From an uncultured Candidatus Saccharibacteria bacterium (GTDB lineage Bacteria; Patescibacteriota; Minisyncoccia; Minisyncoccales; GWA2-38-27), in assembly GCA_964506305.1 (NCBI GenBank), contig CAZDKD010000001.1:8031-72030 (forward strand): a stretch of DNA of 64,000 bases. Reading direction: 5' to 3'. Position 1 is the first letter of the stretch; every line of letters begins with the position of its first letter. Made by a program: the position numbers and the translations under genes. The notes beneath the pieces were generated by a model. The model saw only the letters and a list, made by a program, of their open reading frames with translations. It had not been told where the DNA came from and did not search any database. Shown here piece after piece: positions 481 through 49,725 of this stretch.

Positions 481-1257
481 ATGATTCCTTATTTTTGCTT
501 TGATAAAATCCAAATAGGCCCGATTACTTTTTATGTCTGGGGAATATTTTTAGCTTTGGCTTTTATAATCGGCTACTTTTTGGTTTTAAGGCAGGTTAAA
601 AAACAAAAAATTAATCCTGATATAATCTATAATTCATTTAGTTGGATAATTTTAGGAGCAATTATTGGCGCCAGGCTGGGTTATATCTTTCAATTCCCAA
701 AATATTATTTTAGCCAGCCCTTAGAAATTTTAAAAATTTGGGAAGGGGGATTAACTTTTCACGGAGGCTTTCTTGGAGTACTGATTACTTCTATTATTTA
801 TGCTAAGTTTGCCAAAATTAGCAAAAGATTATTTTTTCAGATAGCTGATTTAATAGCTTTAGTTCTTCCTATTTCCATTGCTATTGGGAGAATCGGCTGT
901 TCTTTAATCAATGATCATCAGGGAGCTGAAACTTCTTTGCCCTGGGGAATAGTTTGGCCTGACGGTATAGTTCGCCATCCGGTAGCTGAATATTTGATAA
1001 TTAGCGCCTTAATTCTATTTTTTGTTCTAAGGTTTCTGAAACCGAGATTAAAAGAGCCCGGCCGGTTGTTTTTTGCTTTTCTGCTCTTATATTCTATTTC
1101 CCGATTCTTCTTAGATTTTACCCGTTCTACCGGTATTTTATTGTCTGACCCTCGCTATTATTGGTTATCCACAGCTCAATGGTTATCTTTAACTATAATT
1201 TTAGGTATAATTATGAAAGAGCTAATATTCTTAAAAAGCCCTGTAGAGAAAATTTGA
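481..1257 (+). CDS. lgt: prolipoprotein diacylglyceryl transferase
   Basis: Multi-TM protein with GARLGY, W.GGL.FHGG and RIGCSLIN(D) Lgt signature blocks. Confidence 0.85.
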   Translation: MIPYFCFDKIQIGPITFYVWGIFLALAFIIGYFLVLRQVKKQKINPDIIYNSFSWIILGAIIGARLGYIFQFPKYYFSQPLEILKIWEGGLTFHGGFLGVLITSIIYAKFAKISKRLFFQIADLIALVLPISIAIGRIGCSLINDHQGAETSLPWGIVWPDGIVRHPVAEYLIISALILFFVLRFLKPRLKEPGRLFFAFLLLYSISRFFLDFTRSTGILLSDPRYYWLSTAQWLSLTIILGIIMKELIFLKSPVEKI

Positions 1258-7926: not shown

Positions 7927-7932
7927 TAGAAT

Positions 7933-8168
7933 ATCCTTGAAAATTACTAAAACCGATGAATCGGGTAGATGGGCCCGATGAGGTGGCTTCTGCGTTAGTG
8001 GAAGCCCGGCTTCCTCCGTAATCAGAGGATAACTGTTAAACCCCGCTTAGCGGGGCGAGTCAGTGAAAGATGCCCCCGCCATGGCGGGGGAATCAGGGTG
8101 GTACCGCGGGAAAACTTCTCGTCCCTGTTGCATAGTTTATCTATGCCTTAGAGACGAGGAGTTTTTTT
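7933..8168 (+). ncRNA. unclassified ~240-nt structured RNA (or riboswitch-like leader of the 8224 gene) with several GC-rich hairpins, ending in an intrinsic terminator
   Basis: Hairpins CCCCGC-tta-GCGGGG, CCCCCGCC-at-GGCGGGGG, GGAAGCC-cgg-CTTCC, GCATAG-tttat-CTATGC; terminator ..GAGACGAGGAGTTTTTTT; sits between promoter and strong RBS of next gene; no coding potential. Confidence 0.3.
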
Positions 8169-8223
8169 AATACTCAAAAATAGTTCTTTAACAAAAATTA
8201 AAATTCAGTTAGGAGGTGTATAA

Positions 8224-8466
8224 ATGTGGAGCGTAGCCCTTTGTCCTAAATGCGGTTTATCTGGAGAATGTTATTGCCGTTGCCTTGGCAGCAGTATTTT
8301 GGATCGTTCTTATGAGTATGTTTTTATCTGTAAAAATTGCGGACATACTAAAACAATTAAAGAAAGCGGAGGATGTTGGAGTGGTCCGTCTACTAAGTGT
8401 CCATTTTGCGGAAAGAATTGTAATGTTCACCAAGAACCGCCGAAAGAATTCAAAGTTTCAAAGTAA
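8224..8466 (+). CDS. small Cys-rich zinc-finger protein
   Basis: Strong RBS AGGAGGTG; CPKCG..CYCRC..CKNCG..CPFCGKNC metal-binding pattern. Confidence 0.5.
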   Translation: MWSVALCPKCGLSGECYCRCLGSSILDRSYEYVFICKNCGHTKTIKESGGCWSGPSTKCPFCGKNCNVHQEPPKEFKVSK

Positions 8467-9033: not shown

Positions 9034-10104
9034 ATGAGTATTTCTGACAGGGTAAAATTGACTGATATGACGAGAAGCAGAGGAAGAGGAGTAATTGAAA
9101 AACTGTATCGAATGTTTTATTTGCAGGGACCAGGCGCTGGAACGTTTCTAGGGCTTCCTTTTGACCAGTTGGTTGAACACGGGCCCGGCCACGAATTTAA
9201 ATGGGAACATTGCGCTAAACCACGGTCAGTAATAGAATTAGCCAATCGGGGCAGAGAATATTTTTCAGCTCTAGTGTTATCCATAGGCCAGGCTCAGAAG
9301 TATCAGCACGATATTGACCATGCTATTCCCTTGATAGTAAAATTGGACGGTCATTTCTATACCGGCAAAGCTAACCAAGTTAATTATCCCCGGCACACTA
9401 TGTTTGGTTCGGTAGAAGATGCTTTGAAAATGGGAGCTTGTGCTGTAGGATTGAGTTTTTATCTGGGTTCAGAGCAAACCGGAGAAGACGTAGAAAGAAT
9501 AGCTTTTATAAGAGAGGAAGCTCACAATAACGGTTTGCCTCTGGTTTTATGGAGTTATCCTCGAGGACCTTTATTCGATACTATTCAGGCAAATAGTTTA
9601 TTGTCTTGCCATTACGCTGTTTCGGCTGCCGAGTCGTTAGGAGCTGATGTGGTAAAAACAAAATTTCCTAGCGTGGTCGCGCCAAAGTGCAGGGATGCCT
9701 ATGAGAAATTTATCAAAGAAGAATATTCTAAAAAGATCCCCGAGGCAACTAGGTATCTGGAGTTTGAGCCCGGAAAGAAAAAATTAGCAGCTTACGAAAA
9801 AAGAATGGAAGAAAAAGATAAAAATCCGAATTTTGATTCTCTTCTTGACAGGGCCCGGCATATTGAAAGAGCAAGAATAGTTGTCAGAGCCGCAACCAGA
9901 ACATTTGTAATATTTTCCGGAGGGCCCAGAACAACAGGTAGTGCAAAATCTGATTTAACCAAAAGTACTGAGATAATTATGGAAGCAGACGGCGAGGGAA
10001 GAATTATTGGCAGAAACCTCTGGGGAATCCCGGTTGAAGAAGGTCTTAAATTAGCGAAAGCTGTAACTGAGGTTATGCAAAAGGACGGATTTAAGAGATG
10101 GTGA
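9034..10104 (+). CDS. fbaB: class I fructose-bisphosphate aldolase, DhnA/FbaB type
   Basis: Blocks LPFDQLVEHGPG, IPLIVKLDGH, VEDALKMGACAVGLSFYLGSE, LVLWSYPRG, LGADVVKTK align with E. coli FbaB (350 aa). Confidence 0.8.
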   Translation: MSISDRVKLTDMTRSRGRGVIEKLYRMFYLQGPGAGTFLGLPFDQLVEHGPGHEFKWEHCAKPRSVIELANRGREYFSALVLSIGQAQKYQHDIDHAIPLIVKLDGHFYTGKANQVNYPRHTMFGSVEDALKMGACAVGLSFYLGSEQTGEDVERIAFIREEAHNNGLPLVLWSYPRGPLFDTIQANSLLSCHYAVSAAESLGADVVKTKFPSVVAPKCRDAYEKFIKEEYSKKIPEATRYLEFEPGKKKLAAYEKRMEEKDKNPNFDSLLDRARHIERARIVVRAATRTFVIFSGGPRTTGSAKSDLTKSTEIIMEADGEGRIIGRNLWGIPVEEGLKLAKAVTEVMQKDGFKRW

Positions 10105-10120
10105 ATTTTTTAAAAACAAA

Positions 10121-10148
10121 AAGCGCCCCGTCAAGACGGAGCGCTTTT
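10121..10148 (+). terminator. intrinsic terminator
   Basis: AAGCGCCCCGTC-aa-GACGGAGCGCTTTT; near-identical copy at 16384-16413. Confidence 0.65.
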
Positions 10149-10152
10149 ATTC

Positions 10153-10180
10153 TTGACAAGACTTCATCGCTTGCTAAAAT
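10153..10180 (+). promoter_or_regulatory. U1 promoter TTGACA-16-TAAAAT
   Basis: ttgacaagacttcatcgcttgctaaaat. Confidence 0.5.
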
Positions 10181-10381
10181 AAAAGTAGTTCTTTGTTTTG
10201 TAAAAGAGAAGAGAGCCTTTTCAAAAACTTATTAAGATCAGGTTTAAGAGGGATTTACTCCCTATTATTTGTGGTGAATTTGAAAAATTGTTGATTCACA
10301 GCTCCCTCTATTTTGAGGTAAAATGAGCTCAAAAGTTTAAAAATTCTATTTACAGGCTCTCTTCTCTCTATTTGCTCTTTT

Positions 10382-10406
10382 AAAGAGGCTTAATTTAAGC
10401 CTCTTT
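10382..10406 (+). terminator. U1 terminator
   Basis: AAAGAGGCTTAA-t-TTAAGCCTCTTT. Confidence 0.5.
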
Positions 10407-10410
10407 GTTC

Positions 10411-10439
10411 TTGACAGATTCTTTTGATTGTCTTAGAAT
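10411..10439 (+). promoter_or_regulatory. U2 promoter TTGACA-17-TAGAAT
   Basis: ttgacagattcttttgattgtcttagaat. Confidence 0.5.
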
Positions 10440-10580
10440 AAAGGAAGTTTTGTGATAGAAAAGAGAGTCCCTGAAGAAAATTTTTGTGAAAAGAGTAAGG
10501 ATACTCATATCTCCTTTCTTTTTTAACCGGGAACTCGTTGTTTCCATCTTCATACTCTCTTCTCTTTCTTTTGTTCTTTC

Positions 10581-10609
10581 AAAGACCCCGCCTTGGCAGG
10601 GTCTTTTTT
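10581..10609 (+). terminator. U2 terminator
   Basis: AAAGACCCCGCC-ttgg-CAGGGTCTTTTTT. Confidence 0.55.
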
Positions 10610-10644
10610 AAATCAACTAGCAGGGGGACCGGGTTTTTTAAACC

Positions 10645-10672
10645 TTGACAAGATTTTTTAATTATGTAATAT
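10645..10672 (+). promoter_or_regulatory. U3 promoter TTGACA-16-TAATAT (near-identical to U5 promoter)
   Basis: ttgacaagattttttaattatgtaatat vs ttgacaagattttttaattatgctaaggt at 11289. Confidence 0.5.
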
Positions 10673-10848
10673 AAAAATTAGTTGTTTTAAAATATAAATA
10701 TTCCGGAAAGTTGGGGCTAGTCCTCCAATAGCAGGGCAGCGGTTTCGTCGGAAGACCGTGGTAAGAAGCTGGCGCGCTTATATTTGTGCCAGTCAACCCG
10801 CTAACAACTAGTTGGCAAACAATTTTTCAAGAAAGAAAGGTGGCTATT

Positions 10849-11043
10849 ATGAATAGTCCGATGAGTCCAAGAGGCCCGATGGGTCCGATGACAGCGAATA
10901 ATCTCTCGAATTGCCTTCAAGCTACGAAGGGTCCAATAATTCGTAAGAACTCTGCTGTCTACCAAGATGTAATTGGAAGAAGCCAGAAGATTCGTTTGAT
11001 GCCGGGTGAGGCCCAAGTGCTAAGGATGAAGTACGGTAAGTAG
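10849..11043 (+). CDS. 65-aa ORF with good RBS whose C-terminus resembles sigma-70 region 4.1 but lacks the 4.2 HTH
   Basis: RBS GAAAGGTGG 7 nt before ATG; ...IRLMPGEAQVLRMKYGK stop, compare RpoD LTAREAKVLRMRFG; may be fragment or decoy; weak. Confidence 0.2.
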   Translation: MNSPMSPRGPMGPMTANNLSNCLQATKGPIIRKNSAVYQDVIGRSQKIRLMPGEAQVLRMKYGK

Positions 11044-11065
11044 GCATGAAAATGCCAATAAGCAA

Positions 11066-11096
11066 AACGGAAGAGAAAATTCTCTTCCGTTTTTTA
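11066..11096 (+). terminator. U3 terminator
   Basis: AACGGAAGAGA-aaat-TCTCTTCCGTTTTTT. Confidence 0.55.
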
Positions 11097-11112
11097 TTAT
11101 TGAAGTTGAAGT

Positions 11113-11140
11113 TGACAATTTTTTTGGTTGTATTAAGATA
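11113..11140 (+). promoter_or_regulatory. U4 promoter TTGACA-16-TAAGAT
   Basis: ttgacaatttttttggttgtattaagat. Confidence 0.45.
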
Positions 11141-11288
11141 AATTCGTTTAAATATTATTGAGGGAGGGGAGTCCATTTCTAAGGGGGCGCTATCGCTACG
11201 GCTGCCTAATCTCCCTTTCCTCTATATTGTTCTTTTAAAGTTGAAAGGAGAGAGAAAATAAACCTTCAGCTAAAAAGTGCAATAGGGG

Positions 11289-11317
11289 TTGACAAGATTT
11301 TTTAATTATGCTAAGGT
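11289..11317 (+). promoter_or_regulatory. U5 promoter TTGACA-17-TAAGGT
   Basis: ttgacaagattttttaattatgctaaggt. Confidence 0.4.
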
Positions 11318-11545
11318 GTATTTATTGGATTTCATTATATATACAGTAAGAGGAAAGAGAACCTCTGGGATGTGAGACCTGATGGCAACCCGAAAGAAGT
11401 CCAAACAGGGCAATTCTATATTCTCTTTCCTCTACTTGTTAGTTCTTTATACCAATGCTTTTCATGGATGATGAGAGAGTTGCTTAATGGATTAAGTAAT
11501 TGGACTCGCTTTTTTAAAAAAAAGCGAGCCGACCAATTTACATTT

Positions 11546-11563
11546 TGCGAATGCGCGCATTCG
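11546..11563. repeat. perfect 18-bp palindrome GCGAATGCGCGCATTCGC
   Basis: Self-complementary; GC-rich island in AT-rich spacer; candidate operator or hairpin. Confidence 0.5.
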
Positions 11564-11599
11564 CCACTGCTATGCTCTCTTTCACATCCTTTATTCTTT

Positions 11600-11630
11600 A
11601 AAGACCCAAAACAATTTGGGTCTTTTCTTT
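11600..11630 (+). terminator. U5 terminator
   Basis: AAAGACCCAAA-acaa-TTTGGGTCTTTTCTTTTTT. Confidence 0.55.
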
Positions 11631-11817
11631 TTTCAAGAAATATATTAAGATAAATAAGACACGGGAAAAGAGAGTTTTGAAGACAAAATTAAAAGTTAAT
11701 ATCGGCTCTTCGTCTACAACGTTCTCAATGGTGAAACTTGTACATTTTTAAGCATGGAAACTCGTTGTTTCCAACTTCATACTCTCTTTTCCATTTATAG
11801 TTCTTTTGAGCCTAATT

Positions 11818-11836
11818 TTATTAGGCTCTTTTTTTT
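11818..11836 (+). terminator. U6 terminator
   Basis: GAGCCTAAT-ttt-ATTAGGCTCTTTTTTTT, runs directly into U7 -35. Confidence 0.5.
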
Positions 11837-11863
11837 GACAAATTTTCTGGTTTGATTTAAGAT
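11835..11863 (+). promoter_or_regulatory. U7 promoter TTGACA-17-TAAGAT for S8 peptidase gene
   Basis: ttgacaaattttctggtttgatttaagat. Confidence 0.5.
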
Positions 11864-11971
11864 GGGCCTACCTAAACACCGTCAAGGAAAGAAAGTTCCT
11901 ACCTTCGTCGCTGCGGCTGGTATACTCTCTTTCCTCATTTATTGTTCTTTAAAAATTGAAAGGGGATAGGA

Positions 11972-13093
11972 ATGTTTATCAAACAGAAATTTTTTCAAAA
12001 GGGTATGCTTGTTTTTGCTTTTTTATTGGAGGCTATTAATTTGTGCGGATGTACTAGAAATAAGAAGCCCAAAAGAAAAGTAGTTGTATTTGTGCTGGAT
12101 AGCTTTATAGAAGAAGAGAGCCACGGCGAGCTCGTGGCGGATATAATTGAAGAGAAATCTCTTTCTAAGTGTGAGATAAAAATTATAGATGTTTTCTTTT
12201 CAATAGGAGCAAAAAAGAACAAATATTTAAAGGCCTTAGCAGATGTTTCGGATTATGCAGATAAGCATCCGAATGAAGCAATTGTGGTGAATATAAGTTT
12301 GTGCAGCAAGAATTATAATCTATTAGAGCATTTAATGATTTCAGAGCTTTATGAAAAAGGAGTGATAGTTGTAGCTGCGGCGGGTAATGACGCTACTTCT
12401 AATAGGCGATATCCGGCAGCTTATAGAGAGACAATAGCGGTTGCTGCTTTACATTGGAAAAGGAAAGCTGATTATTCTAACTATGGCAGTCATATTGATT
12501 TAGCTACGTCTGGTTTTGGAAGCGAAAAGTTATTGAAAAAAGAAACATCTGGAGGAGGCCTTTTTATAGAGGAAACGAAGTATTACAGCGTAAGAGGCGG
12601 AACATCGTTTGCAACGCCAAGAGTTGCTGGCTTAATCGCTTATTTATTAAGGCAGAGGCCAGAGCTAAGCCCTAGAGAGATAGTTCATCTTGTAAAAGAA
12701 AATGCTACTCCTGTAAAGGACAAATTTGGGCGTTGTGGACTATTAGGCGCGAGAATCAATCCTTACGGCACTATCTTTGCTGTTGATCCTGTTTACCAAC
12801 GAGCCCTCGTTTTTCAAATTGCTTCCATTGTTGCAGTGTTAATTTTTTGGATTTTTTGCGATAGATTCTTTGATGCCAATGGCGGATTATTTTTTACAGG
12901 TTTGTTGCTATTCGGATTATTGCTAATAGCAGCAAATATTATTCTTATTCAGGCCTGGAATATCATATACGGCACTATTGCAGGCAGCACATTAATTTTA
13001 TTGGCTGGTCTTTGCCTTCCCATGATGTACTCTTTTAATAAAAAGAAAAAAGAAAAGGAAAAAATGGAAAGGCTTGGCGAATTTGAAACTTAA
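11972..13093 (+). CDS. subtilisin-like serine peptidase (S8) with C-terminal membrane anchor
   Basis: Asp block VVFVLDS, His block SHGELVADII, Ser block GGTSFATPRVAG; C-terminal TM helices. Confidence 0.8.
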   Translation: MFIKQKFFQKGMLVFAFLLEAINLCGCTRNKKPKRKVVVFVLDSFIEEESHGELVADIIEEKSLSKCEIKIIDVFFSIGAKKNKYLKALADVSDYADKHPNEAIVVNISLCSKNYNLLEHLMISELYEKGVIVVAAAGNDATSNRRYPAAYRETIAVAALHWKRKADYSNYGSHIDLATSGFGSEKLLKKETSGGGLFIEETKYYSVRGGTSFATPRVAGLIAYLLRQRPELSPREIVHLVKENATPVKDKFGRCGLLGARINPYGTIFAVDPVYQRALVFQIASIVAVLIFWIFCDRFFDANGGLFFTGLLLFGLLLIAANIILIQAWNIIYGTIAGSTLILLAGLCLPMMYSFNKKKKEKEKMERLGEFET

Positions 13094-13765: not shown

Positions 13766-13841
13766 TTGACAAACTCCTAATTCTGTGATATTTTTCATTA
13801 GTGATTAAATGTTCATTTAAAATTTAGAAAGGAGATAGAAA
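13766..13841 (+). promoter_or_regulatory. conserved promoter+5'UTR cassette R5 copy A (TTGACAAACTCCTAATTCTGTGATATTTTTCATTAGT.ATTAAAT.GTTC.TTTAAAA...GGAGAT)
   Basis: -35 TTGACA, extended -10 TGTGATATT, AT-rich UTR, SD GGAGAT; four near-identical copies (13766, 14875, 16419, 17100). Confidence 0.55.
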
Positions 13842-14831
13842 ATGAAAAAGATGATAGAGGTAGGTATTGTAGGATTTGGCAATGTTGGGCGAGGTGTTTT
13901 TAAGGCAGTTGAAAAGAATTCGGACATGGAAGTAGGTGCAATTTTTACACGAAGGCCGGATGTGGTCCGCAAAGAATTAAAAGGGGTTTTTGTTTTTGAC
14001 ACAGAACAAGCTTTTTATACTCCCGGTGCTAGGATTGATGTGATGATTCTTTGTGGGGGATCAAAAGAAGATTTACCGGTTCAGGGGCCAAAGTTTGCCC
14101 AAAAATTTAATACTGTTGACAGTTTTGATACCCATGATGACATTCCTGATTATTTTGAGGCAATGAAACTTTGTTCCGAAGAGGGAAACAACGTATCTGT
14201 TATTTCTGCCGGCTGGGATCCGGGAATTTTTTCTTTAGAGAGAGTTTTTGGAGACGCTTTTCTTCCTCTGGATAATAAAACGTATACTTTTTGGGGAAAG
14301 GGCGTTAGCCAAGGGCATTCGGACGCAGCAAGAAAAGTGAACGGCGTAGCGGACGCCAGGCAATATACGATTCCCTTAGAGAATAGCTTGGAGAAAGTAA
14401 GAAAAGGGGAGAGCCCCACTTTTACCAAGAGGCAAATGCATAAGCGCCTTGTTTACGTTGTTCCTGAAGAAGATGCAGACTTGGAAAGCATTGAAAAGAG
14501 TATAGTATTAATGCCTAATTATTTTAACGAGTATGATACAGAGGTAGTTTTCATTAGTAAAGAAGAAATGAAGAAGAGTCATAGCGATTATACCCATGGA
14601 GGTTTTGTTTTAACATCAGGGGAAACAGGGGAAGGAAATAATCAAATACTGGAATACAAGTGCCATTTGGAAAACAACCCCGAGTTTACAGGAAGTGTTT
14701 TAGCGGCTTGTGCAAGAGCTGCCTCTAAATTAAACAGAGTGGGGAGGAGAGGAGCTTTTACTATGTTAGATATTCCTCCTTGCTATTTAAGCCCCCATTC
14801 TTCATCTTTTTTAAGAAAGAAATTTATGTGA
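13842..14831 (+). CDS. ddh: meso-diaminopimelate D-dehydrogenase
   Basis: Near-colinear match to Corynebacterium Ddh: GIVGFGNVGRGV, DVMILCGGS, GWDPGIFS, TFWGKGVSQGHSDA, RQMHKRLVYVV, NPEFTG, GAFTMLDIPPCYLSP. Confidence 0.85.
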   Translation: MKKMIEVGIVGFGNVGRGVFKAVEKNSDMEVGAIFTRRPDVVRKELKGVFVFDTEQAFYTPGARIDVMILCGGSKEDLPVQGPKFAQKFNTVDSFDTHDDIPDYFEAMKLCSEEGNNVSVISAGWDPGIFSLERVFGDAFLPLDNKTYTFWGKGVSQGHSDAARKVNGVADARQYTIPLENSLEKVRKGESPTFTKRQMHKRLVYVVPEEDADLESIEKSIVLMPNYFNEYDTEVVFISKEEMKKSHSDYTHGGFVLTSGETGEGNNQILEYKCHLENNPEFTGSVLAACARAASKLNRVGRRGAFTMLDIPPCYLSPHSSSFLRKKFM

Positions 14832-14874: not shown

Positions 14875-14944
14875 TTGACAAACTCCTAATTCTGTGATAT
14901 TTTTCATTAGTAATTAAATAGTTCTTTAAAAAAGGAGATTGATT
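14875..14944 (+). promoter_or_regulatory. promoter+5'UTR cassette R5 copy B
   Basis: ttgacaaactcctaattctgtgatatttttcattagtaattaaatagttctttaaaaaaggagatt, 96% identical to copy A. Confidence 0.55.
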
Positions 14945-15208
14945 ATGAATGACAAACAGATATATCTAGTTATTGGGCTTATTATTTCAACTCTTATATT
15001 TGGTATGGGAGTAAACGCTATAGACAGCACAGTTTCTTCCATGGCAACAAAAAGCCCTGAATCATTAGAAGGTGTAGCAGAAACCTTATTTTTTAAGACA
15101 AGCTTTTCTTTTCAATATCACCTTGGTATGGTTCTGGTTTTCGTTAGCTTTATTTTAACTATCGGAATAATGTTGTGGTATTTTCAGAAAAAACCTACTA
15201 AAGAATAA
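14945..15208 (+). CDS. small membrane protein (start moved to ATG 7 nt after GGAG; track used upstream TTG)
   Basis: Two hydrophobic helices; MNDKQIYLVIGLIIS... Confidence 0.4.
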   Translation: MNDKQIYLVIGLIISTLIFGMGVNAIDSTVSSMATKSPESLEGVAETLFFKTSFSFQYHLGMVLVFVSFILTIGIMLWYFQKKPTKE

Positions 15209-16418: not shown

Positions 16419-16497
16419 TTGACAAATTCATAATTTCGTGATATTTTTCACTAGCGTATTAAACAAACAGTTCTTTGAAAATTGAAAGGAGATTGAA
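16419..16497 (+). promoter_or_regulatory. promoter+5'UTR cassette R5 copy C (more diverged)
   Basis: ttgacaaattcataatttcgtgatatttttcactagcgtattaaacaaacagttctttgaaaattgaaaggagattgaa. Confidence 0.5.
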
Positions 16498-16965
16498 ATG
16501 CTTATAGATTGTGCAATTACTCTTGGGTCTGTTCAATCCGTCCTAGACAGAGGTGTGGATGGAATCACAATAATCTTACTCCTACTTTGTTTCATCGTTT
16601 TATTTGGCCTAATGTTTCTAAGCTTCTTTACAGGGTTGATTTCTGATCTAAAATCTCGCTGGCTAGATGATGAACATTTGGCGGGCATAGTAATTGGATC
16701 TTCTCTTCAAGCACTTGCCTCGCTTATTTTATTTGTATATTTTACAGAAATGGGCAGAGAGTTTTTTCAATCGATTGAAGTTTTTGGTATACTTACATTG
16801 TTTGGATTCCTCGTTTTAGGGAGTTTACTTCTTACACCAATTGCGGTCATAAATGTATTACTTTACCTTATAGGAAGGTTTTTGCGATATACTGTTTATT
16901 TTTCCGGAAAATTTCTTAGCCGGGGAAAGAAAAATAAAAGATGGGCCAGATGTCAAGTAAGATAA
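16498..16965 (+). CDS. integral membrane protein, unknown function
   Basis: 4 predicted TM helices. Confidence 0.4.
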   Translation: MLIDCAITLGSVQSVLDRGVDGITIILLLLCFIVLFGLMFLSFFTGLISDLKSRWLDDEHLAGIVIGSSLQALASLILFVYFTEMGREFFQSIEVFGILTLFGFLVLGSLLLTPIAVINVLLYLIGRFLRYTVYFSGKFLSRGKKNKRWARCQVR

Positions 16966-17099: not shown

Positions 17100-17170
17100 T
17101 TGACAAACTCATTTTTTTGTGATATTTTTCAGTAGGTATTAAATAGTTCTTTAAAAAAAGGAGATAGGAA
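17100..17170 (+). promoter_or_regulatory. promoter+5'UTR cassette R5 copy D
   Basis: ttgacaaactcatttttttgtgatatttttcagtaggtattaaatagttctttaaaaaaaggagatagga. Confidence 0.55.
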
Positions 17171-17812
17171 ATGTTAAAAAAAAGAGTAATTAGCGGCGCA
17201 GTGCTTATATTGTTGTTAATTGGCATGTTTTTTATAGGAAAACCCTGGTTTTACCTGTTATTGACGGTTATTACTGCTTGGGGGATAAGAGAAATTTGGC
17301 TGGTTAATAAGAATAAGCATGAGACAAAGGTTTCTTTTTACCTTTTCTTTATTCTGCCGGCTCTTTACCTTTTCTTCTCGCTTTTTTGGGTAGTTGGCGA
17401 GTTGCGGTGGGGAAGTAACATCTGGTGGCTTATTTCAGCGCTTATTGGAACTTCAGCTTATGACACCCTGGCTTATTTTATCGGTAAAAGCATAGGAAGG
17501 AATAAGATTACGCCAAAGACGAGCCCAAACAAAACATGGGAAGGAACAATGGGTGGCTTTTTAGGCCCGGTTTTAACTGTTGCGATAATAGGAAGATATT
17601 TTCTCTTTCTGAATTGGTTTGAAATAGCAGTTTTTTCTTTAATGATAGGAGTTTTAGCTTTTTTAGGGGATCTTATGGTCTCTTGGTATAAAAGAAGATT
17701 AGGAGTAAAAGACATAGGACATATTATTCCTGGTCATGGAGGTTTGCTTGATAGAATAGATAGTCATCTCCTTGTTTTTTTAGGAGTTTTTTGCTTTCAG
17801 GCGATGATTTAA
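17171..17812 (+). CDS. cdsA: phosphatidate cytidylyltransferase
   Basis: C-terminal signature SWYKRRLGVKDIGHIIPGHGGLLDRIDS. Confidence 0.75.
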   Translation: MLKKRVISGAVLILLLIGMFFIGKPWFYLLLTVITAWGIREIWLVNKNKHETKVSFYLFFILPALYLFFSLFWVVGELRWGSNIWWLISALIGTSAYDTLAYFIGKSIGRNKITPKTSPNKTWEGTMGGFLGPVLTVAIIGRYFLFLNWFEIAVFSLMIGVLAFLGDLMVSWYKRRLGVKDIGHIIPGHGGLLDRIDSHLLVFLGVFCFQAMI

Positions 17813-49485: not shown

Positions 49486-49541
49486 TTTTTTTAAAAAACA
49501 ACGAGCGGATTAGTAAAACTAATCCGCTTTTTTCTTGCCTC

Positions 49542-49615
49542 GTAGAGAAAATTTGACTGCCTTTAACAGGAAGTATTTTGCTAAGCAAAACATCTGTCAA
49601 GTTTCTTCTACGGGG
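49542..49615 (+). ncRNA. conserved ~70-nt structured element, copy 2
   Basis: gtagagaaaatttgactgcctttaacaggaagtattttgctaagcaaaacatctgtcaagtttcttctacgggg; preceded by terminator 49499-49535. Confidence 0.35.
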
Positions 49616-49725
49616 TTGACAGGAGATAGTTATGGGTATATATTTAAAATAGATATACACTATAAATAGGTATACACTAAAGGTCGATATTATGTTAAAA
49701 TAAATTAATTAAATCGCAAACTAAC

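Follow-up and report, generated by a model that had tools for sequence, protein, structure and literature searches.

Seven modules of one plan between an aldolase and a peptidase gene

We analyzed a 64-kb stretch of contig CAZDKD010000001.1 from an uncultured Candidatus Saccharibacteria bacterium (the whole stretch is referred to below as the window), in which an intergenic gap of about 1.8 kb (positions 10143-11971, + strand) separates a class I aldolase gene from a gene for an S8 peptidase. This gap was found to hold seven modules built on one plan, in which a purine-rich 5′ arm and a complementary pyrimidine-rich 3′ arm flank a variable core and a U-rich tail, GTTCTTTAAA, follows. A protein-coding unit, U3, lies among them. 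The features of the region are as follows, with ORF standing for open reading frame, SD for Shine-Dalgarno sequence, and UTR for untranslated region.

9034-10104: class I aldolase gene (PF01791)
10153-10412, + strand: U1; promoter 10153-10180, 5′ arm 10205-10218, core of about 135 nt, 3′ arm 10354-10367, tail 10374-10385, terminator 10381-10406
10411-10612, + strand: U2; promoter 10411-10439, 5′ arm 10457-10468, 3′ arm 10554-10569, tail 10571-10583, terminator 10581-10610
10645-11100, + strand: U3, a protein-coding unit in the array and outside the family; promoter 10645-10672, leader of about 170 nt, 64-aa ORF 10849-11043, terminator 11064-11093
11112-11262, + strand: U4; promoter 11112-11139, 5′ arm 11156-11171, 3′ arm 11211-11226, tail 11227-11240, SD-like GAAAGGAGAGAG at 11245-11256, no ORF behind it and no terminator
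11289-11632, + strand: U5 and U5b, two modules on one predicted transcript; promoter 11289-11317
within it, + strand: U5; 5′ arm 11349-11361, 3′ arm 11421-11433, tail 11440-11450
within it, + strand: U5b; 5′ arm 11464-11479, 3′ arm 11574-11590, tail 11591-11603, terminator 11600-11625, no promoter of its own
11646-11836, + strand: U6; −10-like TAAGAT 11646-11651 with a poor −35, 5′ arm 11663-11675, 3′ arm 11781-11793, tail 11798-11808, terminator 11808-11828
11835-11974, + strand: U7, the 5′UTR of the S8 peptidase gene; promoter 11835-11863, 5′ arm 11885-11897, 3′ arm 11924-11936, tail 11940-11954, SD 11958-11967, ATG 11972
11972-13093: S8 peptidase gene (PF00082; Peptidase_S8 by Pfam, E 1e-22)

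The cores were 27-140 nt long and unlike in sequence from copy to copy, and the tail, of the form (U)UGUUCUUUAAA(G), began about 18 nt downstream of where the 3′ arm starts. Downstream of the tail came a terminator in U1, U2, U5b, and U6, module U5b in the case of U5, an SD-like run without an ORF in U4, and a genuine SD with the peptidase start codon in U7. Several copies resembled each other more specifically. U2 and U6 have in common a 51-nt block (84% identity) that contains the GGAACTCGTTGTTTCC hairpin already picked out in an earlier reading of the same DNA, made from the sequence alone (the sequence-only reading), and U4 was 85% identical to the tail and SD of U7. An arm pair on the U5/U5b transcript was complementary at 13/13 positions. 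No strict arm pairs were found outside the array elsewhere in the window.

The promoter and terminator signals were located by a scan and by folding. TTGACA boxes on the + strand were at 10153, 10411, 10645, 11112, 11289, and 11835, each with a TAnnnT-like hexamer 16-17 nt downstream, such that the gap holds 6/31 of all + strand TTGACA occurrences in the 64 kb. The promoters at 10645 and 11289 have 22 identical bases in common. Of the terminators, those at 11064-11093 (U3), 11600-11625 (U5b), and 11808-11828 (U6) were called by the scan, and those of U1 (10381-10406) and U2 (10581-10610) were seen in the folds. Array promoters and terminators were on the + strand without exception and were far above shuffle expectation, with 14 promoter-like sites in the scan versus 6.3 ± 2.1 in shuffles, and nine terminator-like sites versus 2.7 ± 1.6. 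The six promoters and five intrinsic terminators counted in the sequence-only reading were thus recovered. Its description of the units as promoter-driven and terminator-ended applied to most of them, but U5b has no promoter, U6 has a −10-like box only, and U4 has no terminator. Specifically, consensus promoters were present in U1, U2, U4, U5, and U7, and terminators in U1, U2, U5b, and U6. In the stand-alone units, the terminator is followed by a new promoter.

Because U4 lacks a terminator, transcription probably continues from it into U5. The predicted transcripts are therefore roughly U1, U2, the U3 mRNA, U4 (with U5 and U5b), U5 with U5b, U6, and the U7-peptidase mRNA. Four of these would consist of modules only (U1, U2, U5 with U5b, and U6), each predicted to end at a terminator. 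The array region was also present in eight metagenome contigs, in which it was base-for-base identical except for one substitution, rendering strain variation uninformative.

A closing helix with compensatory changes

The two arms form a helix, P1, which closed the minimum-free-energy fold of every module. Its consensus strands are a purine-rich 5′ GAGRAAAGAGAGU and a pyrimidine-rich 3′ ACUCUCUUUYCUC. The complementary arms proposed in the sequence-only reading were thereby confirmed in U1, U2, U4, U5, U5b, U6, and U7. Fold z-scores were −4.3 to −7.4 for U1, U2, U5b, and U6, and weaker for U5 (−2.5), U4 (−1.4), and U7 (−0.9).

We quantified the pairing on the arms of 15 units from seven genomes, that is, the seven units of the window and eight from elsewhere. 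Since MAFFT alignment of whole units shifted the 5′ arm by a column, pairs were counted on arm-only mini-sequences joined by an artificial GAAA loop. P1 comprised 14 pairs, with 87.6% of cells paired. Changes on both sides had occurred in 8/14 pairs, so that the arms do co-vary across relatives, which was the check that the sequence-only reading had called for, and none of 500 shuffles (0/500) reached the observed covariation or pairing. When the partner strand was slid by 1-3 columns, pairing dropped to 50-72%. Additionally, G-U combinations outnumbered A-C combinations among the P1 cells (12 versus 4), from which it follows that pairing has been selected in the + strand RNA and not in DNA. 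A second helix, P1b, located past a small internal loop, had compensated variation of its own (GAAGA:UCUUC, GAAAG:CUUUC, UAAGGG:CCCUUA, and AAAAGG:CCUUUU).

Two structural candidates were rejected by inspection, with no formal test. A K-turn at the internal loop between P1 and P1b would call for tandem G-A pairs, which were not present. A triple helix between the tail and P1 was discarded in that the tail does not covary with the purine strand, is in Watson-Crick rather than Hoogsteen register, and is also present in mRNAs that lack P1.

Coding potential of the modules and of U3

Several ORFs overlap the modules, and none behaved as a gene. The block common to U2 and U6 is in different reading frames in the two local ORFs, both of which run through terminators; the 93-aa ORF at 11372-11653, over U5 and U5b, had no Pfam match and likewise passes through a terminator. 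An ORF that spans the unit of the relative L141 was not present in L144, L139, or L051b. A non-coding nature of the modules is thus supported, in that no conserved ORF could be recognized in them. The sequence-only reading, which had described the units as non-coding and structured, was borne out for all but U3 by these differences in reading frame, the unconserved ORFs, and the folds. Small hydrophobic peptides, precursors of ribosomally synthesized and post-translationally modified peptides beside the S8 peptidase, and type I toxins were all rejected as products of the array, given that conserved blocks are in different frames and that the ORFs cross terminators and are not conserved in orthologues.

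U3 differs from its neighbors. No purine/pyrimidine arms were found in it, and its ORF, dismissed as weak in the sequence-only reading, has a homologue in the metagenome contig L137, in an unrelated context (57% identity over 84% of the length). This conservation makes it a real small gene, of 64 aa, although its protein had no Pfam match.

The leader of the U3 gene (10679-10848, + strand) is about 170 nt long and G+C-rich, whereas the L137 homologue has a short, plain leader only. Its fold z-score was just −1.4 and it had no Rfam hit, so that a regulatory structure is not established for it.

Stand-alone units in related genomes and the origin of the array

We used the aldolase protein to search for closer relatives, and recovered genomes with 77-84% identity and the same upstream gene order. 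Exactly one unit was located after the aldolase terminator in L138, L139 (identical to L140), L141 (identical to L142 and L143), and L144 (identical to L145 and L146), and each of these single units has a TTGACA promoter and a terminator of its own. L147 and L149, with aldolases 74% and 80% identical, had no unit after the aldolase gene. Farther away, among the species genomes in GTDB with an aldolase at most 72% identical (Atribacterota, Ratteibacteria, and others), neither synteny nor units nor the leader box described below were found.

A pattern scan of metagenomes returned mostly chance matches, and L026, L049, and L051 were real among the matches listed. These had the same arms, tail, and terminator, and in L049 and L051 the units stood in tandem, in sets of two or three. 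Promoter and terminator signals, as consensus matches only, were also present at the units of L026, L049, L051, L138, L139, L141, and L144. In the relatives, 25-40 nt lie between tail and terminator, with an exposed UUUUCUCC, UCCUCC, or CUCCAC stretch; this segment has been lost from the window copies.

With a profile of 3′ arm plus tail built from the relatives only, the module units were the six best matches in the 64-kb window. E-values were lowest for U7 (6.8e-6), followed by U6 (3.7e-5), U2 (7.4e-5), U4 (6e-4), U1 (2e-3), and U5 (0.14), and that of U5b (1.1) was marginal. The relatives-only profile of the 5′ arm matched U2 at E 1.7e-3. Moreover, the 5′ leader of U1, TCTTTGTTTTGTAAAAGAG, was similar to the leaders of the L141 and L051b units, and U1 is the positional orthologue of the single post-aldolase unit of the relatives. 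Ancestrally, the aldolase gene was directly followed by one stand-alone RNA gene, a state kept in the relatives, and since these have one unit at the same locus, the array of the window is a local amplification of a conserved RNA gene. In the sequence-only reading, the upstream units had been offered either as orphan duplicates of a switch in the peptidase leader or as small RNAs (sRNAs) that carry SD-like and anti-SD-like sequences. The first option fails on the conserved form, which is the stand-alone unit beside the aldolase, and the second fits best, given that relatives keep a single stand-alone unit.

The same comparison bears on whether the modules are mobile repeats, either miniature inverted-repeat transposable elements or repetitive extragenic palindromes, in which case the arms would be terminal inverted repeats and the promoters and terminators incidental. 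Such elements do have inverted repeats around a short non-coding core in several copies, and a different palindromic element is also repeated in the genome (at 1239-1316 and 49538-49617). However, the cores are completely different between copies, all copies are in one array and one orientation with none elsewhere in the 64 kb, and one diverged copy has been kept at the same locus in relatives. The excess of G-U over A-C combinations (12 to 4) indicates selection on one RNA strand, and the fixed 18-nt spacing from arm to box has no counterpart in transposable elements. We therefore regard this explanation as very improbable.

The tail recurs as a box in ordinary mRNA leaders

The tail described for most units in the sequence-only reading was indeed present in all modules, but it is not unit-specific, because the same box is in many ordinary mRNA leaders of this genome. 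In these it was found 22-43 nt upstream of the start codon, in the same sense. Sites in the window were as follows.

14921: leader box
16470: leader box
17146: leader box
34679: leader box
39961, − strand: leader box
41855, − strand: leader box
8183: leader box, after a T-box terminator

The box was located before SDs, and it was also present in L141 and L137. GTTCTTT was enriched in non-coding DNA in sense orientation, given that 11/17 of its + strand copies fell within the 19% of the window that is non-coding. In the aldolase leaders of all relatives, the best-conserved part is a close variant, AUUGUUUUUUGAAAAUUG; this holds even for L149, from which the sRNA is missing at that locus.

Within the modules, the U-rich box UUGUUCUUUAAA is conserved and is predicted to be accessible and mostly unpaired. 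Its probability of being unpaired was 0.6-0.99 in 12/15 units, while that of the 3′ arm was at or below 0.17. For the plain leaders and U7, a weak hairpin between box and SD, made of U-A and U-G pairs, is predicted. A CodY box and a hidden promoter were set aside as identities for the tail, since matches were poor and inconsistent (by inspection, with no formal test).

The U7 leader and the possibility of a switch in cis

The sequence-only reading had recognized in U7 the same module, as the 5′UTR of the peptidase gene, and this is supported here. It had also proposed that U7 is a switch of the form anti-anti-SD/anti-SD/SD. In silico, P1 was formed in wild-type U7 and the SD was weakly paired to the tail or box; when the 5′ arm was destroyed, the 3′ arm sequestered the SD, the probability of which being unpaired fell to about 0.01-0.1. 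The mutually exclusive pairing is thus possible in silico, but the switch as such is only plausible, with no trigger evident. In U7, the module probably acts in cis, by P1 locking away a strong anti-SD, which would leave the SD only weakly masked by the box. As P1 is strongly favored, the probable constitutive effect is that a potent anti-SD is kept from pairing.

It might be argued that this SD switch in cis is the functional element of the whole region, and that the upstream units are non-functional or decaying duplicates of the leader. The module does stand directly before the SD in U7 and U4, the 3′ arm pairs with the SD in silico once the 5′ arm is removed, as just described, and U4 has the SD-like run without ORF or terminator that is expected of a decayed copy. 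Yet stand-alone units without SD or ORF, each with a promoter and terminator of its own, have been kept with compensatory changes, in four relatives at the same locus and in three more contigs elsewhere. The search for an orthologous U7-peptidase arrangement found none: the S8 peptidase homologues that came closest (46-52% identity) were in unrelated genomes and contexts, with no module upstream. The cores differ between units, which leaves no conserved sensor, and a trigger would be required given that P1 is far more stable than the alternative; none was evident. A riboswitch is also at odds with cores that differ in length (27-140 nt) and sequence, and with U7 being the only module that precedes a gene. 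Overall, we consider it unlikely that the region reduces to a switch of U7.

Leaders that sequester the SD include the fourU and ROSE RNA thermometers, and stabilizers of Gram-positive mRNAs include the aprE leader and the cryIIIA STAB-SD. U7 and the plain leaders resemble fourU and ROSE thermometers and the platforms of translational riboswitches in the weak pairing predicted between box and SD, and U7 additionally has a stronger, latent anti-SD. Unlike in those systems, there is no conserved ligand-binding core here, the conserved element is P1 and not an SD hairpin, and 6/7 modules have no real gene behind them (five lack an SD, and U4 has an SD-like run only). U7 resembles the 5′ stabilizers (aprE leader, cryIIIA, STAB-SD) in that its protease mRNA has, close to the 5′ end, a stable stem and a purine run like an SD. 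The stabilizers, however, affect the mRNA of which they are part, which leaves the stand-alone terminated copies across species unexplained.

The start of the peptidase gene was disputed by gene callers, which placed it at 11972 or 12005 (373 or 362 aa), and the SD spacing favors the ATG at 11972. With the start at 11972, the N-terminus includes LCGC, which is lipobox-like and suggests a lipoprotein protease.

A probable cluster of sibling small RNAs

No described RNA family was recognized in the array. Rfam 15 gave no match at gathering score in the window, and at E ≤ 10 only terminator hairpins and chance matches were returned for 9900-12300; searches on the relatives L049, L051, L138, L146, and L137 gave nothing credible. 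As a positive control, the same search detected a T-box 2 kb upstream (E 3e-14). The absence of a described family in the sequence-only reading thus extends to Rfam, in both the window and the relatives.

On balance, we favor the explanation that the region is a cluster of sibling sRNA genes, diverged tandem duplicates of one lineage-specific structured RNA. The family is undescribed, and although sibling clusters of sRNAs are already a known kind, the architecture, a long hairpin in each module, is unusual in combining a long purine/pyrimidine closing helix with a box of mRNA leaders. The module RNAs would act at translation-initiation regions. For their mode of action we tentatively prefer mimicry of leaders, in which the RNAs, displaying the box beside a stable helix, would compete with mRNAs for its reader (the 30S subunit, S1, or an RNA-binding protein), because the box is the accessible conserved element and occurs in mRNA leaders as the same sequence and not as its complement.

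Protein-titrating sRNAs that mimic mRNA leaders are known, namely CsrB and RsmX-Z for CsrA, and CrcZ for Hfq/Crc, and RsmX may form tandem multi-copy arrays. Like these, the module RNAs are small and carry a motif in the same sense as many mRNA leaders do. The known examples have many GGA or A-rich motifs each, whereas here there is one GUUCUUUAAA box per module and no known binding protein. A more far-reaching version, to which we assign little credence, is that GUUCUUUAAA is the recognition site of a global, lineage-specific factor, either a protein or a ribosomal site, with a role in translation initiation, and that the sRNAs made of P1 plus box are dedicated decoys titrating it. If true, this would be a functional analogue of the CsrA/CsrB or Hfq-Crc/CrcZ circuits from entirely different parts, with decoys amplified to seven copies and one of them wired into the mRNA of a secreted protease.

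Alternatively, the modules may be classical antisense sibling sRNAs of the LhrC, csRNA, or RoxS type, whose CU-rich, anti-SD-like stretches pair with and block the SD regions of several targets, with P1 and the box serving only as scaffold and chaperone-binding site. Candidates for the antisense stretch would be the 3′ arm or, in relatives, the UUUUCUCC or CCUCC stretch that precedes the terminator. Pyrimidines predominate in the 3′ halves of the RNAs, the SDs of this genome are of the AAGGAGA type, and relatives have UUUUCUCC, UCCUCC, or CUCCAC between box and terminator. Chaperone-binding modules of known sRNAs have a hairpin between an upstream AU-rich single strand and a downstream U-tail, and the layout here resembles theirs. 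This is also the commoner biology, with precedent in LhrC (PMC5880928) and the csRNAs (PMC4507080). On the other side, the invariant GUUCUUU is not an anti-SD for AAGGAG except via G-U pairs, and the two pyrimidine-rich candidates are compromised in ways set out below. We give antisense action about as much credence as leader mimicry, modest in either case.

Several points tell against the favored explanation, whether in its genetics or in its proposed mechanism. The promoters and terminators are putative, being consensus matches only. All P1 changes are transitions, possible via G-U intermediates among recent paralogues and with the purine/pyrimidine asymmetry kept, so that the covariation signal partly reflects relatedness. 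U5 (E 0.14) and U5b (E 1.1) fit the family profile weakly, and U4, with an SD but neither ORF nor terminator, looks partly decayed. With respect to mechanism, there is a single box per RNA, as against the many sites of known protein-sponging RNAs, and the box has no known partner protein or reader. A search of the window for complementary targets of the box gave matches at chance level, which also leaves antisense action without a target. A very stable helix ties up the CU-rich 3′ arm, which is almost never unpaired in the ensemble, and the exposed CCUCC stretch of the relatives is missing from the window copies because the box abuts the terminator; this absence weakens antisense pairing for the window copies, and both facts stand against that alternative as well.

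Genes for the LhrC sRNAs of Listeria monocytogenes are partly adjacent. LhrC1-5 (with Rli22 and Rli33-1) resemble the modules as homologous sRNAs encoded by separate genes, with many CU stretches that might face AG-rich SDs, and they bind SD regions through CU-rich single-stranded regions (PMC5880928). In contrast, the main CU-rich strand here is locked in an 11-16-bp purine/pyrimidine helix, cores are 27-140 nt, and the exposed conserved element is a U-rich box. Where LhrC has three exposed regions of the UCCC type, the 3′ arm here was unpaired with a probability at or below 0.17, and neither sequence nor covariance-model similarity was seen: the lone Listeria match in the Rfam search (rli24/rli22 model, 17 bits, E 5.6) was the terminator hairpin of U3. 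The csRNAs of Streptococcus pneumoniae (ccnA-E) are likewise several highly similar sRNAs, two of their genes being in tandem, and pair between SD and AUG (PMC4507080). They are controlled by a single response regulator and act on a known target, comC, whereas the architecture here is different and has no known regulator or target.

To our knowledge, almost nothing is known of RNA-based regulation in uncultured sediment bacteria. The locus offers a clean, testable candidate sRNA family, with strong predicted promoters and terminators, a covarying helix, a conserved position beside a glycolytic gene, and a recent seven-fold amplification. Identifying what reads the box would bring to light something general about how translation starts, or is controlled at its start, in the lineage; should the RNAs be no more than local paralogues of an ordinary antisense regulator, they would be one more catalogued family.

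Other repeated elements and leaders

A Y-shaped palindromic element of about 78 nt was noted at two intergenic sites of the window and in L026, with 80-85% identity. Two inner hairpins are enclosed by a stem of about 20 bp, and either strand folds with z-scores of −4.0 to −6.6. Within the inner hairpins, some changes are seemingly compensatory, and no Rfam match was found for the element. Its positions are as follows.

1239-1316: Y-shaped element, window
49538-49617: Y-shaped element, window
7930-8007: Y-shaped element, L026

The T-box leader (7947-8129, + strand, with a terminator to about 8170) scored 65.6 bits (E 3e-14), which is below the Rfam gathering score of 93 because its Stem I is drastically shortened (9 nt versus 74 in the model). 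It precedes a gene at 8224-8466 for a Cys-rich 80-aa zinc-ribbon protein, and the leader box, here ATAGTTCTTTAA at 8180-8192, stands between the T-box terminator and the SD.

Two further upstream elements recurred. The first is a promoter-plus-leader cassette of about 65 nt, TTGACAAACTCCTAATTCTGTGATATTTTTCATTAGTAATTAAATAGTTCTTTAAAAAAGGAGA, repeated before unrelated genes and conserved between genomes, in which TGTGA-N6-TCA(C/T) resembles a CRP/FNR-type palindrome overlapping the −10. The second is an upstream block, GCTTGAAAATAACCCAAAAAAGAGTTAGGGTGGAAAATAG, found before several genes and across genomes with up to 95% identity over 42 nt, which reads as a TTGAAA-N17-TAGGGT/TAGATT promoter. Their sites are as follows.

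13766-13845, + strand: TTGACAAACTCCTAATTCTGTGATATTTTTCATTAGTAATTAAATAGTTCTTTAAAAAAGGAGA cassette, window
14875-14947, + strand: TTGACAAACTCCTAATTCTGTGATATTTTTCATTAGTAATTAAATAGTTCTTTAAAAAAGGAGA cassette, window
16419-16500, + strand: TTGACAAACTCCTAATTCTGTGATATTTTTCATTAGTAATTAAATAGTTCTTTAAAAAAGGAGA cassette, window
17100-17173, + strand: TTGACAAACTCCTAATTCTGTGATATTTTTCATTAGTAATTAAATAGTTCTTTAAAAAAGGAGA cassette, window
about 14140-14205 and about 14500-14560: TTGACAAACTCCTAATTCTGTGATATTTTTCATTAGTAATTAAATAGTTCTTTAAAAAAGGAGA cassettes, L141
about 950-1020, − strand: TTGACAAACTCCTAATTCTGTGATATTTTTCATTAGTAATTAAATAGTTCTTTAAAAAAGGAGA cassette, L049
13128-13165, 15975-16005, and 17855-17895: GCTTGAAAATAACCCAAAAAAGAGTTAGGGTGGAAAATAG blocks, window
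705-745 and 1710-1765: GCTTGAAAATAACCCAAAAAAGAGTTAGGGTGGAAAATAG blocks, L051
920-960: GCTTGAAAATAACCCAAAAAAGAGTTAGGGTGGAAAATAG block, L137

Finally, positions 13800-14750 of L141 (and identically L142 and L143) hold three small genes in succession (67, 68, and 61 aa), all of them equipped with a promoter cassette, a leader box, and an SD of their own, from which tandem mini-cassettes are seemingly a habit of the lineage.

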